DNA of 64,000 bases from an uncultured Acidobacteriota bacterium (lineage in GTDB: Bacteria > Acidobacteriota > Thermoanaerobaculia > Multivoradales > SZUA-115), in assembly GCA_963805975.1 (NCBI GenBank), contig CAWDVR010000006.1, positions 32,001-96,000 of the forward strand. Reading direction: 5' to 3'. A program made the translations under genes and the position numbers. Below, piece after piece: positions 21,200 to 48,764 of the stretch (position 1 is the stretch's first letter; each line of letters opens with the position of its first letter). The notes under the pieces were generated by a model that ran no database searches, was not told where the DNA came from, and saw only the letters and a program-made list of their open reading frames with translations.

Positions 21200-22459
21200 G
21201 TGAAAGCCGCCATCATCGCCGTCGGCTCCGAGATGCTCGGCAGCGAGCGCCTGGACACCAACTCGCTCCGCCTCTCGGCGCTCCTCGCGCGCTACGGCGT
21301 GGAGCTGCGGCGCAAGAGCGTGGTGGGCGACCTCGAGGCCGACCTGGTGGCCGAGATCGACGCCCTGCTCCCGGCCTTCGACCTGGTGATCGTCTCCGGC
21401 GGCCTGGGCCCCACGGCCGACGATGTCACGCGGCCGGCCGTGGCGGCGGCCCTCGGCCGTGGGATCTCGATCGACGCCGCCGTGGTGGCCGTGATCGAGG
21501 AGCGTTTCGCGCGCATGGGCCGCAAGATGGCCGCGGTCAACCGCCGGCAGGCGGAAGTGATCGACGGCGCCACCGTGCTCGCCAACGACCGCGGCTCGGC
21601 GCCCGGCCTGACGCTTACCGAGGGCCGCACCACCCTCTTCCTCTTCCCCGGCGTGCCCTCGGAGCTGGACGCGATGTCCGCCCGCTACCTCGATCCGTGG
21701 CTCGCCGAGCGCACGGGCGGCGCCGCGCTCGAGACCGTGGTGCTCAAGGTCTCCTGCGTTGCCGAGTCCACGCTCGAGGAGTGGATCGCGCCGGCCTATG
21801 AGGACTTCGGCCGCGAGGCGATCACCGTGCTCGCCAAGCCGGGCGAGATCGAGGTCTGGGCCACGGCCACCGGCGAGCCGGCGGCGCGGCAGGCACGCCT
21901 GGCGACGATGAAGGCCCGGCTCACCGGGCTGATCGGCGATTTCCTCTACGCCGAAGGTCCGAAGGCGACGCTCGAGGCCACGGTGGGCGAGCTGCTGCGC
22001 CAGGCCGGCGCGACCCTCGCCACGGCCGAGTCGTGTACCGGCGGCCTGGTGGCCGAGCGCATGACGCGGGTGCCCGGTTCGAGCAACTACTTCGTGGGCG
22101 CCGCCGTCACCTACTCGAACGCGCTCAAGACCCTCCTCCTCGGCGTGCCGCCCGAGCTGATCGCGACCCACGGTGCGGTGTCCGAAGAGGTGGCGCGGGC
22201 CATGGCCGCCGGCGCCCGCGAGCGCCTGGGAGCCGACTACGCCCTCGCCCTCACCGGCGTCGCCGGCCCCGGCGGCGGCAGCCCGGAGAAGCCCGTGGGC
22301 ACGGTCGAGATCGCCCTCGCCGGCCCCGGAGACGGCGACCTCGAGTCCCGCCGCATCCGCTACCCCGGCGACCGCGAGCGCATCCGCTGGATCGCGAGCC
22401 AGATCGCCCTCGAGATGCTGCGGCGCAAGCTGGCGGGGTTACTCCCTCTGAGGCTCTAA
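21200..22459 (+). CDS. cinA: Competence/damage-inducible protein A (MoCF-like plus NMN deamidase)
   Basis: GGLGPTADD, AESCTGG, GAVSEEVA and TGVAGPGGG motifs. Confidence 0.95.
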   Translation: MKAAIIAVGSEMLGSERLDTNSLRLSALLARYGVELRRKSVVGDLEADLVAEIDALLPAFDLVIVSGGLGPTADDVTRPAVAAALGRGISIDAAVVAVIEERFARMGRKMAAVNRRQAEVIDGATVLANDRGSAPGLTLTEGRTTLFLFPGVPSELDAMSARYLDPWLAERTGGAALETVVLKVSCVAESTLEEWIAPAYEDFGREAITVLAKPGEIEVWATATGEPAARQARLATMKARLTGLIGDFLYAEGPKATLEATVGELLRQAGATLATAESCTGGLVAERMTRVPGSSNYFVGAAVTYSNALKTLLLGVPPELIATHGAVSEEVARAMAAGARERLGADYALALTGVAGPGGGSPEKPVGTVEIALAGPGDGDLESRRIRYPGDRERIRWIASQIALEMLRRKLAGLLPLRL

Positions 22460-23512
22460 GGGGAGTCTAATGTCGGCGTCGCAAGGTTGACAGGAGTCTT
22501 GGGTGGCCAGCCACCGTCGCCGCTCGATGCCTCCCAACATCGGAGGCCAGAAGGTCGTCTGTCTGGGAGTGGCTTTGTTGATACAAGATTCGTCGCGCTT
22601 CGGCTCTTCCGACATGCAGCCGAGTAACACGGCGTTGCGCCGCTCGAATGTGTACTCCGGACACTCTTCCCGCCTCATATCCCCCCGCCTCTTCTCCCAG
22701 TAGCCCAGGCGATAGTACCAAAGCAGGTAGGGTAGGACATCAAAGAAGACCTCAGCTTGTTCCGCTGGATCCTGAAGCACCGGACCCATACCTGGAGCCT
22801 TGGGGAGTCTGCTAAGACGAAGTGTATTTGCGAGGTTGCGTATCGTAACTGCAACCTCATCCGCTTCTGATATTCGATAGATTACGATCGAGAAGGGGCC
22901 GCCGGCGCAGGAGTAGAGGCGGAGACGTCGAGCGTACTTATACGTTACCTTTAAGCTATCGGACAAGGCACGGGGGAAGTACTGGTCTTCCCTGCAGTCA
23001 GAACGATACCAACAGGTATATGGTGATGAGCTAGGCCACAGGTCACCCGCACGGATCATTCCCGTGCGAAAATCCAAGCTCGTTGGAGTATAGGAGGAGT
23101 CCTTCAGGCGATTCTCTCGTAGACCATTGGAGCGCTGGTCAATCTCGTAGAGCCGTGGAAGCCCCTCGAGGCTGTCGTAGTCAATATGGTTTCTTCGTTC
23201 AAAGTCGTCTGGCTCGAGGCAGATGTTGCCCTCAGGAATCTGACAACGAACTACCTTGACCGCCTCCTCCTCCACTTCTTCGCAATACTTACTTTCCGGA
23301 GGGTCAAGCTCGAAGTCGTCTGCCAAAAATTCGAGCTGTAGACGAGTTTTTACGGTGTTGTACCAGCCGCAGGTCTTCTGCGGGCCGTTTGCCTTCGCTA
23401 CCCAGGCAGTGTTCCACCCCGTTCGCGTAGGGCAGTCCTTGTCGTCTTTCAAGCAGATCAGCATCAAGCCAGTGAAGAACACATCGATACCCACAGGCAC
23501 CGCTCCCTTCAT
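22439..23512 (-). CDS. Hypothetical Cys-rich protein (357 aa, 14 Cys), lower GC, directly downstream of the CHAT gene
   Basis: Long ORF with visibly more A/T than the flanks; ATG 5 nt after the CHAT stop. Confidence 0.8.
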   Translation of the reverse strand: MKGAVPVGIDVFFTGLMLICLKDDKDCPTRTGWNTAWVAKANGPQKTCGWYNTVKTRLQLEFLADDFELDPPESKYCEEVEEEAVKVVRCQIPEGNICLEPDDFERRNHIDYDSLEGLPRLYEIDQRSNGLRENRLKDSSYTPTSLDFRTGMIRAGDLWPSSSPYTCWYRSDCREDQYFPRALSDSLKVTYKYARRLRLYSCAGGPFSIVIYRISEADEVAVTIRNLANTLRLSRLPKAPGMGPVLQDPAEQAEVFFDVLPYLLWYYRLGYWEKRRGDMRREECPEYTFERRNAVLLGCMSEEPKRDESCINKATPRQTTFWPPMLGGIERRRWLATQDSCQPCDADIRLPLEPQRE

Positions 23513-23517
23513 GCGGC

Positions 23518-26500
23518 TCAGAGGCCGCGGAAAAGTTCAAAAGGCACCCACGCGAACGGATCGCTCGACACGGACTCGGACAGCAAGGCGAGCTGCGCGA
23601 GGCGTAGCGCCTGAGCCTGCGACTCGCCTTCGAGGAGTCGGGCGTGGAACACCGCTGCGAGTCGGGCTGCCGCCTCGTCGTTGACTGCCCAGAGCGTGGC
23701 GACGACCGAGGGCACTCCGGCTGCGAGGAAGGCACGGGCCAGGCCGGCCACCCCCTCCCGGTCGCCGTCGGCAAAGCCCGGCGCCGTGTCGCACGCGGAC
23801 AAGAACACCAGCTCGACGCCGGCGAGGCGCTTCGCATCGAGGTCCGAGGCCCGTAGCGGCGCGCGGCCCACGTCGGCCGTCGCCACCTCCGAGCCCAGCG
23901 GGTTCCGGGGATCGATTACCACGTGCGCTGCGAGGTGCAACACCTCGCTTCCCGGCAGCTCGTCGAGGATCTCTCTGCCGCGTGGCCTGCTCGCCCACCA
24001 GCAGGCGGGGAGCTTCGTAGAGCGCGGCCACCGCCTGCGCCTCCGCTGCGGCCCATCCCAGGAGCGGCAGGGCTGGGAACCGCGCGCGATCGAACGCCGG
24101 GTCTCCCACCGCCAGGACCCGGCGCAGCTTCCCGGTGGCCGGCGTGCGCCGCGCCAGCGACGCCAGGTAGAGATCCAGGCTCGGTGCCACCTGGCAGGCA
24201 TGATCTTCGATCAGAAAGCGGCCGCGCACCGCGTCGAACAGCGCCGGGAACGGCACCTGGTGCAGCTCGCGGTCGGGCACGAAGACCAGCTCGGTGTCAG
24301 GCGGCAGGCCCTGGAGCACAGGGCGGAGCAGCAGGTCGAAGGCCCTGGCCGCGGCGGCCTCGCCGGCGTCCCGTGAGCGGGCGCGAGCCAGTACGGCGCG
24401 GAGCGAGCCCACCGTTTCGGCCACCTGCTCCCGCGAGACGGGCAGCACGTGCATGCGGAGCTCGCCCTGGCGAAGCCGCCAGACGAGCAGGGTCTCGGGC
24501 AGCACCGTGTAGGTGAGGACGGCGACGTTCGCGGGGATCTGTCGCAGCCGCTCGTCCACGGAGAGAGGCGCGGTGTCGGCCTCGTCGTGAACGCGCTCGC
24601 GCAGCTCCCGCGCGCGAACCCGCTCCGCATAGGCGAAGGCTGCCTTGGCGTCGCCGCGCTCGAGGGCCTGGAAGCGGATCATGGCGTCGAAGCCCCGCTG
24701 GACAGTCGAGAAGAAGCTGATCCGGTGCTTCTCGCTGACGGTGCCGGCGCGCCGGTCCTCGTAGACCTGAAGGCCTCGGCCGAACGCCTTCTCGGCCGCC
24801 TCGAGATCGCCGGTGGCAAGCTGCGCCCGCGCGAGATCGAGCAGCGCGCGCGGGAGGAGCAGGGCATCGCCGCTCGCCTCCAGGCGAGCCACCGCGGCCT
24901 GGGCCAGCTCCAGGGCTGTCTCCGGGTTCGTGGCGAGGCGGTGCTCCGCGGAGGCGATGGTCAGCTCGGTCTCGACGCGTGCCCGCGCGGCCGGCTGCTG
25001 GTACTGATCGAGCGCCTTGCGGCAGGCGGCGATGTCTGCCGCCGCCTGCTCGTTCTCGCCCAGCAGGAGATCGAGGTCGATGCGGCGAATCAGCGTCTCG
25101 GCCTCGGCGCCAGGCTGGGACGCGGCGCGGGCGTTGGCCAGCATCTCGTCGAGGACCGCCCGCGCAGCTTCCTGGCGGCCACTGCCGATCAGGCCGAGAG
25201 CGAGGCTGGCCAGGACACCATGGCGGACCTGCCAGTTACCGGCCGTGACGGCGCCGCGTAGCGTAGCCACTCGATATCGCCACACACCTTCGCGGTCACC
25301 GACGACGCCATACGCCTCGTGGAGCATCCCGGAGAACCTTGTGACGTCGCTGTCACCGGCCTCCGCCAGGAGATCGACGGCCCGCCCATAGTGCGCCAGG
25401 GCCTGCGAATGCCTTCCGTCGGCTATTGAACACAGACCGAGCATGCCCTCGGTCCGAGCGAGCAGCGTTGGGTAGCCTCGCCCCTCGATCTGGGTCACCA
25501 GTGTGGCGAATTGCCCTTCTGCCTCCGCTGGGTGGCGGCGGTAGAGACAAACGAGCTGGCCGAACCGGGCTGCCAGCGCCAGCGGGCTACCGCCTGCGGA
25601 GAGCTGCCGCACTGCCCGCTCGAACGTTGGCTCCGCCTCGGAACAGTTCCCGCGGGTCGCCAGGCCCAGCGCATAGGCTCGGTGGCCCGCCGCCAGGGTC
25701 CGGGAGGCAGCCGGTCGCTGCTCGATCGCGGTGACGGCATCGCTGTACAGCCGCTCGCCGGTGCCGGCCACGGCCTCGGCCACCCGCTTCGCGATTGCGA
25801 GCCGGGCCGCGTCCGCAGGCGTTCCGGCGGCCTCGGCCCAGGCGGGCAGGAGCTCGCTTTCGAGCAGCTCCTTGCTCTGCCGCCGGTACTGGCCCACGAG
25901 GCGTGCCACGGCCGCCTGGTCCCCGGCCGCCGCGGCCGCGAGCAGGGGGCCTTTCTCCGTGATCCAGCGGTCGGCAGTCGTGGGCTCGCGCAACCGGACG
26001 AGGCGCTCGGAAGCCTCCTGGCGCCAGGCACTGTCCGTCTCCAAGTCGAGGTAGCGCTCCCACGCGAGGTTTGATTCGTGTGCCAGAGACATGCGCTCGA
26101 GCGCCAGGGCGAGGTTGAACGCGGCCCGAGGCTCTTCGGGTGCCAGCTCCACGGCACGGGTGGCGGCCACGACAGCATCGACCTGGAGCCAGGGATGGTC
26201 GTCTTGGGCGAGGGTGAGGTAGGCGGCGGCGAGATCGCTCAGGAGGGTCGCGGAAGGTCTCCGCTCCGCCGCCGCCTCGAGCGCCGACACGGCCCGGGCC
26301 GCTGCTCTGCGATGGAGCGCGAGGAGCCCGATGCGATGCTGCTCTTCGGGGTCGTCCTCGCCCGGCAAGGGCCTGGAGCCGCGGAGGACTGGCTGAGCCT
26401 CACTGTCAGACAAGGCGTCCAGCGCTGGTTGTTCAGTGAGAGGTGGCGAGGACCACCGAGCGTAGCGGGTTGTCGACGACAGCCGAGCCTCCACCGGTCT

Positions 26501-26635
26501 CGGGTCGGCTTCGGCCGCCTCCCTCAGGCGCCGCGCGGTCCGGTCTTCGGGCTTGTCGCAACCGCTCAGGAGGAGGACCACCAGACCCCAGGCTCTGGGG
26601 TGGTGCAGAGAAAACCTGACCGAGCGGCTCGTCAT
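23518..26635 (-). CDS. TPR + CHAT (caspase-like) protease with a predicted lipoprotein signal; one-base frameshift near 23972
   Basis: LLLSGC lipobox, TPR (AAFNLALALE), CHAT LVFVPD..LH.VPF.AL; the second frame continues with HLAAH, LVFLSACDT, VVATLWAV and a W..F end. Confidence 0.9.
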
Positions 26636-26836
26636 CTATTTGGGAACGCTTGGCCCTGACATTAAAGGATAGAGACGGACACCTCCACGCGTTTTTCGCT
26701 TCCGGAGTGTCAAACGGAGCGAGCCAGGCGACCTCGAGGCCAGCGATATACTGGCGCCACCCCTTGCCATACCCGCGGCTTGCTGTGACACTTCCCGCGG
26801 CCGAGCAGGCTCCAGAGCACCAGGCCTTCTGACTCC

Positions 26837-27469
26837 ATGAGACTCTTCGTCGCCCTAGAGATCCCCGACGGCGTCCGCCGCGAGGTGGAGGCCCTGATGC
26901 GCGGGGTCGAGCGGGATCTTCCCAAGGCGCGCTGGGTGCGGCCGGAGAAGCTGCATCTGACCCTTTCCTTCCTGGGCGAGGTGGAGAAGGGGCGGCTTTC
27001 CGCCCTGTTGCCCGCCCTGGCGGCCGTGTTCGGCGCCGGCTCCCCCTTCACCCTGGTCGCCGCGGGTGGGGGAGGCTTCCCTCCGCGCCGGCCGGCACGG
27101 GTCGCCTGGGTGGGGCTCCACGGCCACGGCTCCGAAGACGACGCCAAGCTCGCCCTGCTCCAGGCCGAGGTCGCGGCCTCGGCGGCCTTCGCCGCCGGTA
27201 TCGAGCCCGAGCGCCGGGCCTTCCACGCCCACCTGACACTGGCCCGGCCGGAGGTGCCCTGGCCGGCGGCGGCCGTCGAGCGTTTCGCCCGTGCCGCCGA
27301 CCGCCGTTTCGGCGGGCCGTTCCCGGTGGGGGAGGGGGTGCTGATGGAGAGCGAGCTGGGCGCCGGCGGGGCGAGGTACCGGCCTGTCGAACGCTTTGCG
27401 ATCGGCGGCGGGCGCCGCGCACCGGCCGCGCGGGCTGAGCGCGGCCGCGAGGAGGAGACCTCTCCTTGA
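26837..27469 (+). CDS. thpR: RNA 2',3'-cyclic phosphodiesterase
   Basis: MRLFVAL start and two HxT motifs (LHLTL, AHLTL). Confidence 0.95.
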
Positions 27470-41278: not shown

Positions 41279-41432
41279 GGCCTGCGCGACCGCGGCGCTG
41301 AGGAGGTAGCCGCGGGCAGTCGGCATCAATGTGGGTAGAGGGCGGCCACACACGAGAGAGCCGTCAGCCTTTGCCCGCCCCGCGTCGATCGCGTCGATAA
41401 GGTTCTATGTAGTTGAACCAAGCAGGGAGAGC

Positions 41433-42284
41433 ATGAGAATGGAGAACGATGTCCGTTTGGTCTCGACTTCCGACCTGCTGGCGCTAGAGCAACTTCTGTG
41501 TGCGCCGAATGATCCCGCCCGCGAGCCGGCGGACCCGGTCTTGGCGCAGTCGACGCGCCTCAAGGCCGCCGAACTCCTGTCGAGCGAGATCCACAATCGC
41601 GGCCTGATCAACTGGCGCCGCGTTCGTAGCGCGATTGAGCACGAGAATACGCTTGTCAATCATCGAGTGACGTGGCTGCTGCTATCACAGGCCGCGCTTC
41701 TGGCAGCCTTCGCCAGCCTGTATGCCAAGTGGCTCGAACTTTCGGGTGGTAGCTCCGGAACACTGGTTGATAGCTATATACCTGTACCCCTCAGTCTTGT
41801 AGCCATTCTGGGCCTCGTGATTTGCTTCAACCTTCGTGTTTCTCTAAGGAACGCCGCAACCCAACTCAACCGGCTCACTAAGTGGTGGTACGCAATTCCA
41901 TTTCAGTTGTTAGAGGAGAAGAAGAAGGACGAAGCTCACGAAGCGTACGACGATGCTCATAAGAGTCATCCCCCGCTCCATCTTAATCACGAGATGGAGT
42001 GGCGCTTGACGGGAGCTCGAAGAGAGCGATGGAGGGCCCTGTTTGCCATTGAGGTGCTTCCTCTCTACTTCGTAGGGTCATGGCTCATACTGCTGTTCGG
42101 CGTGATTTTGCGGCACGTCATGCGCGATGACTGGTCGCAGGCTACCGCCATTGCAACTCAGATGTTCCCGGTAGTAATGGGATTGCTGGCAGTCGGCGCC
42201 ACTTTCGTTGCGGGACTGGCTTGGGGCCGTCGTAGCCTCAAGGCCCGGGGTGGTAGCACTACTAAGCCCTCGGATAGGGCTTAA
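41433..42284 (+). CDS. Hypothetical membrane protein (about 4 TM), RipA/8xMP-like N-terminal motif
   Basis: Lower GC; EHENTLVNHRVTWLLLSQAALLAAF followed by hydrophobic helices. Confidence 0.7.
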   Translation: MRMENDVRLVSTSDLLALEQLLCAPNDPAREPADPVLAQSTRLKAAELLSSEIHNRGLINWRRVRSAIEHENTLVNHRVTWLLLSQAALLAAFASLYAKWLELSGGSSGTLVDSYIPVPLSLVAILGLVICFNLRVSLRNAATQLNRLTKWWYAIPFQLLEEKKKDEAHEAYDDAHKSHPPLHLNHEMEWRLTGARRERWRALFAIEVLPLYFVGSWLILLFGVILRHVMRDDWSQATAIATQMFPVVMGLLAVGATFVAGLAWGRRSLKARGGSTTKPSDRA

Positions 42285-46708: not shown

Positions 46709-47719
46709 CTACTTCACCACGCGGATCCGATACTTGCCGGTGCCGCCGGCCGTGTTGAAGTGCCGGACCTGCACCTTGTAGGTGCCCGGCACCAGGTCGG
46801 CCGCGATCCGTGGGTTGCGGCCCTCGCCGTTGTCGTCGTCCTGGGCGATCTGGGTGCCGCTGGGCCCCAGGAGCGACATCACCAGGTCGGTCGTGCCGGT
46901 GGTCTCGATGGTGTAGCGCCCGGCGGTCGCGGCGTTGAAGGTGTAGAGATCCTCTTCCGCCGGCTGGCCGATCTCGGCCTCGTGACCTTCGGAGACCGGC
47001 AGCTCGACCGTCGTGCTGGGTCCCTGCGCCTTCGGGTAGACGAGGCCGGCGAACGTCTTGTCGAGACCGGATAGATTCTCGTTGGGGTCGGTGTGGAACC
47101 CGTTCAGGGTCCAGGACGCCGGGAAGCTGTAGAGCATCACGGAGACCGCGTCGAAGTCGCTGCCGTTGATCTGCGAGACCTCGTACTTGTCGTAGAGGTT
47201 GTGCTGGATGGTCGCCGGGTCCCAGTTGTTGGGCGGCCCGGCGAGCGCGGCGTTGACCACCGGCTTGTTCCACTGGATGGGATTGGCGCGCGGGTTCTGG
47301 TGCTCGTGGATCATGCCGAGCATGTGGCCGAACTCGTGCAGGATCACGCCCTCGTCCAGCCAGCCGAAGTTCATCGTCGCCTGGTTGGCGGGGATGCCCA
47401 GCGCGTCCTTGCCGATGTAGGACCAGGCGCCGTCGTCGGCGAAGGTGATGCGGATCTGCGCCGTCGGGCTGTTGTCGAAGACGAACTTCAGGTTGGCGTG
47501 GTCCGTCCACTGCGGCGCGAACTGCTTCACTTGGTCGTGCTGGGCGGAGGTGCCGCCGAGAAAGCGGAACGAGAGAACCGTTCCGTTCGGCCACAGCTTC
47601 GCGATCTCGAACGCGGCGCGGGTGGGGCCCACGCTCAACGCCATCATGCGTCCGGCAAGGGGCCGGTGCAGATCCTGGGGCAGAATCCGGTCGAAGCAGA
47701 CTTTCTCGGTTTGGGGCAT
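46709..47719 (-). CDS. Metzincin (M12A/astacin-like) metalloprotease with a C-terminal PPC domain
   Basis: HEFGHMLGMIHEH, SVMLY Met-turn and DDDNGEG.N.RI PPC-type tail; AAGGAGG RBS. Confidence 0.9.
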   Translation of the reverse strand: MPQTEKVCFDRILPQDLHRPLAGRMMALSVGPTRAAFEIAKLWPNGTVLSFRFLGGTSAQHDQVKQFAPQWTDHANLKFVFDNSPTAQIRITFADDGAWSYIGKDALGIPANQATMNFGWLDEGVILHEFGHMLGMIHEHQNPRANPIQWNKPVVNAALAGPPNNWDPATIQHNLYDKYEVSQINGSDFDAVSVMLYSFPASWTLNGFHTDPNENLSGLDKTFAGLVYPKAQGPSTTVELPVSEGHEAEIGQPAEEDLYTFNAATAGRYTIETTGTTDLVMSLLGPSGTQIAQDDDNGEGRNPRIAADLVPGTYKVQVRHFNTAGGTGKYRIRVVK

Positions 47720-47928
47720 GGGGTCCTCCTTGTAGGGTTGAAGCGGTGGTCGGTGCGGCTCAGCCCATCGTCGTGAGACGGACACGGGAGCGGCGCCTTC
47801 CACCCGTCTGTTGTTCGAGACAGGCCCCTCGTCGCAGCTTTTTGTTACCTTGAATGGCGAAGTGACGAGAAGGTCCGCCGAGGACCGAGGGCGAAGGCGG
47901 CGTAGAATCCGGTTCCGGCCACGAAACC

Positions 47929-48705: not shown

Positions 48706-48764
48706 GAGCGAGGGCCTGACCGGAAAGCGGCTCGCGGGGTCCGTCCAAGGGACGAGGAGCGCAC

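Follow-up and report, generated by a model that had tools for sequence, protein, structure and literature searches.

The two-gene module between cinA and thpR

The window analysed here is a 64,000-nucleotide stretch of DNA from an uncultured Acidobacteriota bacterium, and its nearest relatives are labelled Thermoanaerobaculia or Acidobacteriota. According to ORF calls and Pfam matches, the interval between cinA and thpR contains a TPR-CHAT protease gene followed by a partner gene, both on the minus strand (Table 1). These coordinates and strands agree with the first-pass annotation, which had described a pair lying antisense between the two flanking genes. It had also taken cinA and thpR to be commonly adjacent, and they adjoin in 4 of the 6 genomes with a found cinA (8 same-family genomes were searched). 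The lower GC content that it had noted for the partner was measured as 0.55, compared with 0.72–0.75 in the neighbouring genes.

Table 1. Features of the module, its flanks and the partner copies of the same genome
Feature	Position	Strand	Remarks
cinA, flank	21200..22459	+	3' end overlaps the extended 3' end of the partner by 21 nt
Partner gene	22439..23500	-	353 aa from GTG (357 aa from ATG 23512); predicted mainly-beta, 10 conserved Cys, predicted to lack a signal peptide
C-terminal FWPPML motif, candidate latch peptide	22535..22552	-	Preceded by a linker of lower confidence; most superfamily members have CPP here
Shine-Dalgarno AAGGGAG of the partner	23503..23509	-	In register with L029
Lipoprotein scaffold-TPR-CHAT protease gene	23518..26635	-	1038 codons when the single frameshift is bridged; homologous to the periplasmic part of DdvA
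Catalytic Cys of LSACDT	23791..23793	-	DdvA C907 equivalent by alignment (PMC11506125)
Catalytic His, second H of HLAAH	23923..23925	-	DdvA H862 equivalent by alignment (PMC11506125)
Frameshift, one extra base in CAGAGAG	23968..23977	-	Lies directly 5' of both catalytic motifs; frame is continuous in six orthologues
Predicted type II signal peptide	26558..26635	-	Ends at lipobox LSG/C (Cys26); from sequence
ECF-sigma-type promoter motif GAAAA-N14-CCGTC (GAAA-n16-CGT)	26674..26697	-	38 nt upstream of the TPR-CHAT start; putative function
thpR (RNA 2',3'-cyclic phosphodiesterase), flank	26837..27469	+	
Partner copies in the window's genome (G000)	C6 (window), C3:3042-4028, C2:108678-109658, C1:227727-228581, C2:359404-360372		

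The related locus L029 carries the same two genes, unbroken and at the same cinA/thpR site, with an identity of 66% for the protease and 42% for the partner. No junction repeats were found at the insertion between cinA and thpR. From these observations, the insertion is lineage-specific and not recent. Near the 3' end of cinA, L029 additionally contains an inserted gene for a secreted beta-helix protein of 913 aa (L029:8953-12102), and a short piece of the cinA end is duplicated there. No sigma, Cas or gasdermin gene was found among the 34 window ORFs scanned, the other window ORFs being inspected by eye only, which matches the earlier statement that no gasdermin, CRISPR or ECF sigma gene is adjacent. 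Elsewhere in the window are a 317-aa ORF of lower GC content without a Pfam match (41331-42281, +) and an astacin (M12A) metalloprotease with a PPC domain (46712-47803, -).

The CHAT domain of the protease was matched by Pfam at E=2e-38, and the TPR matches were weak. The lipobox LLLSGC occupies residues 21–26 behind a hydrophobic stretch (Cys codon 26560-26558), and both elements lie within the first 15–35 residues, the range used to recognise lipoproteins. After 12 of 35 close homologues had been set aside as truncated or late-called, the Cys at the lipobox position was kept in 22 of the 23 with a full N-terminus and a strict lipobox in 19, so the lipoprotein signal claimed in the first-pass annotation was borne out. 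We predict from these sequences that the protease is lipid-anchored outside the cytoplasm. Its orthologues are unbroken and 60–66% identical to the window copy (42% in L036), and the His and Cys of the dyad are nearly invariant in an 80-sequence alignment of the protease family.

The gene had been described as a TPR-CHAT gene of ~1040 aa. The motifs LLLSGC, HLAAH and LSACDT are all present, but the 1038 codons do not form one open frame: the extra base splits the gene into a 1032-codon frame without the catalytic motifs and a second frame carrying both. To estimate the frameshift background, 168 ORFs were taken from a 400-kb part of a same-family genome; 90 of them had orthologues in G000, the genome in which the window spans C6:32001-96000. 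These orthologues contained 5 frame breaks in 4 genes. After one query was dropped as a wrong-frame ORF, 89 genes with ~37,000 codons remained; 3 of these genes contained 4 breaks, a background of ~1 per 28 kb of coding DNA. At this rate, the chance of such a frameshift in a 3.1-kb gene is about 11%. Two of the about 20 CHAT genes in G000 are split, and the second has its frameshift inside the CHAT domain (G000:C3:12746-13559).

It is probable that the protease copy of G000 is intact and that the frameshift is an assembly error. A true pseudogene in a decaying module, with the family functional elsewhere, is unlikely but has an appreciable chance; this question is separate from that of the mechanism. 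The one-base insertion looks real and takes both catalytic residues out of the long frame, and the partner carries a 28-residue C-terminal read-through that is missing in all but one of 18 homologues. Decay is argued against by the frameshift being the only lesion seen in 3.1 kb, with promoter, lipobox, dyad and partner intact, by the breaks found in ordinary genes of the same assembly and by the second split CHAT gene. On the window's contig, tssC-like and tssF-like Type VI secretion genes (named by eye) contain three frameshifts (G000:C6:145138-149230); they possibly provide an export route other than Sec, or else point to errors in the assembly.

The partner protein and its superfamily

The partner had been annotated as a 357-aa protein beginning 5 nt after the protease. 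It probably starts instead at GTG 23500, 17 nt past the protease stop, and comprises 353 aa, because the Shine-Dalgarno sequence and its spacing match those of the orthologue in L029. The 14 Cys counted earlier are there, but only 10 are conserved and two belong to the C-terminal read-through.

AlphaFold predicted a mainly-beta structure both for the window partner (pLDDT 79, pTM 0.82) and for a distant superfamily member (pLDDT 91, pTM 0.92). Fold searches gave no PDB match for either model. The first strand (xFxGL) lies within the core fold with a pLDDT of 95–97 in both models, so the partner is predicted to have no signal peptide.

An even number of Cys was counted in 48 of 53 members of the window's partner clade and in 18 of 44 other superfamily members, the latter showing no bias. 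All 12 clade sequences without C202 also lack C98. The clade probably has five disulfides with putative pairings; the even count and the joint loss of C98 and C202 fit disulfides and an oxidising compartment like that of the protease. Gly15, Gly151 and Asn226 are near-invariant throughout the superfamily. In most superfamily members a His is found within H-x-P and a Cys within a C-terminal CPP, together with an invariant Asn. The window's clade has Thr in place of the His and Trp-Pro-Pro in place of the CPP, and it has gained paired cysteines; judged from the alignment, these replacements possibly reflect a lost active or lipidation site. The first Cys of the window partner is residue 20, and none occurs near the start in the superfamily alignment.

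The pLDDT of the linker and then the C-terminal motif was 59/58 then 74 in the first model, and 69 then 94 in the second. A motif modelled more confidently than its linker is the pattern expected of a peptide latched on the core through predicted contacts. No cleavage residue common to the whole superfamily was found; in the window's clade the fourth residue ahead of WPP is commonly an Asp, which the window copy lacks.

The first-pass annotation had called the partner an orphan, which no longer holds, since 18 homologues at 31–41% identity and a wider superfamily were found. A partner profile run against 1.84 billion proteins gave 71 matches, the longest of 390 aa, so there are no large partner fusions among them. 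The window's clade and a paralogue clade were not significantly similar in direct comparison; a bridge set consisting of the 11 weakest profile matches was linked to the former at 99.8% and to the latter at 98.5% probability. Of 251 genomes from the order, 37 had members by the bridge profile, as did 11 of 401 genomes across the phylum by a combined profile; both counts include G000. There is no Pfam or NCBIfam model for the superfamily and it was not found in literature searches, and by profile comparison the partner is a member of an undescribed Acidobacteriota superfamily.

That the partner is dedicated to the protease, as the first-pass annotation had suggested, agrees with the gene order. 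An orthologous lipobox TPR-CHAT gene lies directly before the partner in 8/8 close loci with upstream DNA (L026 includes just the last 560 nt of its CHAT gene). The consistent position downstream of TPR-CHAT genes was seen more widely as well: a CHAT gene immediately precedes the partner in 29 of 30 superfamily loci, which are those returned from 50 matches and include G000's own and one with a broken partner, and in 14 of 17 held-out loci. These counts overstate the linkage, as kin are not independent. Of the partners in the three held-out misses, one is flanked by a C14 caspase and a TPR-CHAT gene, one stands three genes behind a TPR-CHAT gene, and one, a weak match, has no CHAT within 14 kb. 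G000 has 22 CHAT matches in about 20 genes, five of which have a superfamily partner directly behind. The partner diverges faster than its protease: identities are 34–45% for the partner vs 60–75% for the protease in 10 pairs without L036, and 35–37% vs 42–46% in the 5 pairs with L036.

Other arrangements were also observed. In L114:2345-7190 the operon is rearranged into promoter motif, C14 caspase, partner and TPR-CHAT, and two partner-like genes per CHAT operon occur in L115:4596-9159 and L117:4390-7781. The two partner-like genes of L115 are separated by one for a 534-aa secreted protein, and a trypsin gene follows. PIN-domain or nucleotidyltransferase toxin-antitoxin-like genes (by eye) are near the modules at L036:6386-6862, L040:2552-2986 and L031:8079-9178.

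Of 46 superfamily loci, 19 have a second protease directly after the partner (36 loci with a scorable ORF, flanks of 1.5 kb). It belongs to one of five unrelated families: trypsin (7), S8 (7), C39/C70 (3), C14 (1) and M48 (1). In the listed loci of the window's clade, no same-strand second protease is directly behind the partner. By eye, no obvious signal peptide was seen in the partner or in many of the proteases encoded behind it, and CHAT genes of G000 without a partner also have caspase-like or subtilase-like neighbours (by eye).

Promoter motif and comparison with known CHAT systems

In the window, L028, L029 and L031, the otherwise unalignable DNA ahead of the protease gene retains the pattern GAAAA-N13-15-CGTCT; this pattern was drawn from these four loci and matches 12 of 20,000 random 300-nt windows. 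A looser pattern was present in 5 of 11 other upstream regions vs a background of 8%, and all five end in GTCCGTC. This form occurs upstream of CHAT operons in L040, L114, L115, L118 (twice) and L119. The refined pattern, which was defined after the fact and has a chance of 0.0004 per 330 nt, also occurs before the L119 CHAT gene and is missing from L037 and L039, where the sigmas belong to a different type. A divergent ECF sigma with a zf-HC2 anti-sigma is encoded in L040, L117, L118 and L119, a sigma also in L037, L039 and L115, and in L122 a sigma, a fused zf-HC2-TPR-CHAT and a partner stand in a row. G000 encodes two sigmas of the L040 (matching) type. With the motif upstream and no sigma found in the window, the module is likely to be controlled by an ECF sigma acting in trans.

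The refined pattern has 15 sites in the G000 genome, many of them probably chance. They include window position 48722-48745 (+) and G000 C2:923268, C3:747369 and C3:750676, and some of these further matches are a short distance ahead of genes for secreted or unknown proteins and may mark a regulon.

A PDB search with the single window protease gave no match. With a profile of 80 protease homologues, DdvA (8ROT) was the best natural structure at E=1.3e-34, compared with about 4e-7 for Csx29-type structures. The profile aligns with DdvA residues 78–585 and 833–983. The alignment starts at the end of the membrane helix, runs through the scaffold and TPRs and also covers the CHAT domain, where H862 and C907 match the dyad. 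DdvA of Myxococcus xanthus, the counterpart of the ECF sigma DdvS, is a transmembrane anti-sigma with a periplasmic TPR-CHAT region (PMC11506125). The earlier statement that characterised CHAT proteases are cytoplasmic is therefore not supported; DdvA is also the closest natural solved relative. Envelope TPR-CHAT proteins were already known and are not new here, because the whole periplasmic part of DdvA is homologous to the window protease.

DdvA-like anti-sigmas are reported only in Myxococcota and one Comamonas, and the text of the same article, as far as it was searched, does not mention a lipoprotein form or a partner family (PMC11506125). Distant protease homologues (26–30% identity) carry the zinc anti-sigma domain and membrane helix of DdvA. 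By Pfam, the zf-HC2 anti-sigma domain is absent from the window protease, which has the lipobox Cys at residue 26 instead, and there is no cognate ECF sigma next to it, the flanks being cinA and thpR. The module shares with DdvS/DdvA a TPR-CHAT protein with the dyad in register, a promoter resembling the DdvS pattern GTAAn16CGT (PMC6061681) and a following gene, which after ddvA is MXAN_7287, of unknown function (PMC11506125); an extracytoplasmic location like that of DdvA is predicted for its protease from the lipobox. It differs in having a lipobox for the zinc anti-sigma and membrane helix, in its fixed partner gene and in that no sigma, CBASS or CRISPR gene was found near it. By these features, the module looks like a stripped-down DdvA system without the anti-sigma domain and adjacent sigma.

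Type III-E craspase (Csx29-Csx30-CASP-sigma) also combines a TPR-CHAT protein with a neighbouring dedicated substrate, a place that the partner may take here. However, craspase is cytoplasmic and Cas7-11 dependent, whereas the module has a lipobox and no Cas gene was found; no Cas family, Cas7-11 included, was present among the 34 window ORFs scanned. HetF reportedly cleaves PatU3.

The Haliangium ochraceum SAVED-CHAT/PCaspase/PCi/PCc-sigma cluster (bioRxiv 10.1101/2023.06.23.546230) contains a CHAT protein, a second protease, a sigma and a small extra protein, as do many wider-superfamily loci. Unlike in that cluster, no SAVED sensor or CRISPR gene was found in the module, and the window locus has no second protease. 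No SAVED sensor was found in the window protease, where TPR-type matches alone were obtained and the PADLOC SAVED_CHAT match (E=1e-6) covers only the CHAT part.

Bacterial gasdermins lie next to proteases in 43/50 cases (bioRxiv 10.1101/2021.06.07.447441). The partner resembles them in its size of ~300 aa, in its position beside caspase-like or other proteases and in a candidate C-terminal peptide predicted behind a flexible linker; in our locus, too, the adjacent protease is caspase-like. Differences are that no sequence similarity was found, the partner has no Cys at position 3–4 and its protease is predicted to be exported. Fold searches with the partner listed no family at all, so a family missing from the list, gasdermin included, may still share its fold.

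Possible roles of the partner

In the proposed mechanism, an ECF sigma encoded elsewhere in the genome would probably transcribe both genes from the GAAA-n16-CGT promoter. The protease, homologous to DdvA, would be exported and lipidated, as predicted from its lipobox, with the lipid anchor in place of DdvA's anti-sigma/transmembrane anchor. Its TPR region would likely sense an envelope signal and switch on the His-Cys dyad, by analogy with the proposal for DdvA. The likely next step is cleavage of the partner by the active protease, at the variable linker that precedes its C-terminal W/C-PP motif; the cut may free the beta core as an effector, which is the logic of a bacterial gasdermin without a fold match having been found. 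As the partner is predicted to have no signal peptide, it would meet the protease only after non-Sec export or envelope damage.

Our tentative reading, which falls somewhat short of an even chance, is that the partner is the dedicated target of the protease, to be bound, cut and switched on by it. It is favoured by the CHAT-partner linkage, the dyad aligned with DdvA, the faster divergence of the partner, the latch-like C-terminus and the probable disulfides, and by analogy the protease-rich neighbourhoods resemble gasdermin loci (bioRxiv 10.1101/2021.06.07.447441). Against it, a partner predicted to lack a signal peptide may never reach the protease, there is no cleavage residue common to the superfamily, and CHAT activity of DdvA has not been demonstrated (PMC11506125). 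The gene linkage also fits co-regulation, and the protease of the window is frameshifted.

Co-regulation without contact is unlikely, though still a serious competitor. Here the exported CHAT protein would act on a separate membrane anti-sigma (a split DdvA) and free an ECF sigma, and the partner would be a cytoplasmic output of the regulon, possibly processed by a second cytoplasmic protease. The many loci with a divergent ECF sigma and zf-HC2 anti-sigma, the fused arrangement in L122 and the two matching sigmas in G000 fit this reading, and the topology problem is gone if the partner and many downstream proteases, lacking obvious signal peptides, stay in the cytoplasm. However, the partner is directly behind CHAT in 43 of 47 loci, a tighter association than with the sigma or the second protease, it is retained in the stand-alone clade, and the probable disulfides speak against a cytoplasmic life in the window's clade.

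The partner might instead bind the CHAT protease, and elsewhere the second protease too, and set its threshold as an inhibitor, chaperone or activator with no effector activity of its own; we consider this doubtful and the least probable of the roles discussed. Secreted proteins rich in disulfides are often protease inhibitors, and securin for separase and PCi for PCaspase are precedents for such a role. The position of the partner between two proteases of unrelated families in 19/46 loci would suit it, as would PCi within a CHAT cascade (bioRxiv 10.1101/2023.06.23.546230) and the incomplete active site described for DdvA (PMC11506125). Inhibition of five protease families by one fold is unlikely, however, and the window's clade lacks the second protease in the listed loci; the His, invariant Asn and C-terminal Cys of the superfamily, with no even-Cys bias (18/44), look more like an active or modified site.

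A further and improbable reading is that the partner represents the first of a new fold and of a new class of Acidobacteriota protease-activated effectors. Such effectors would resemble gasdermins in logic and not in ancestry. A C-terminal latch would keep them shut, and on envelope breach a caspase-like protease of the envelope, or one of several interchangeable proteases (trypsin, subtilase or papain-like), would release them.

In summary, the module may be viewed as a DdvA-type system reduced to a lipid-anchored protease and one fixed partner, which is a candidate substrate or regulator, and two genes suffice to ask about protease activity in envelope CHAT domains. With no family model, a confident predicted structure and no match in the PDB, the partner superfamily is well suited to structural study. 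If the partner is indeed a cleavage-activated effector, it would represent a new arm of bacterial caspase-like signalling.
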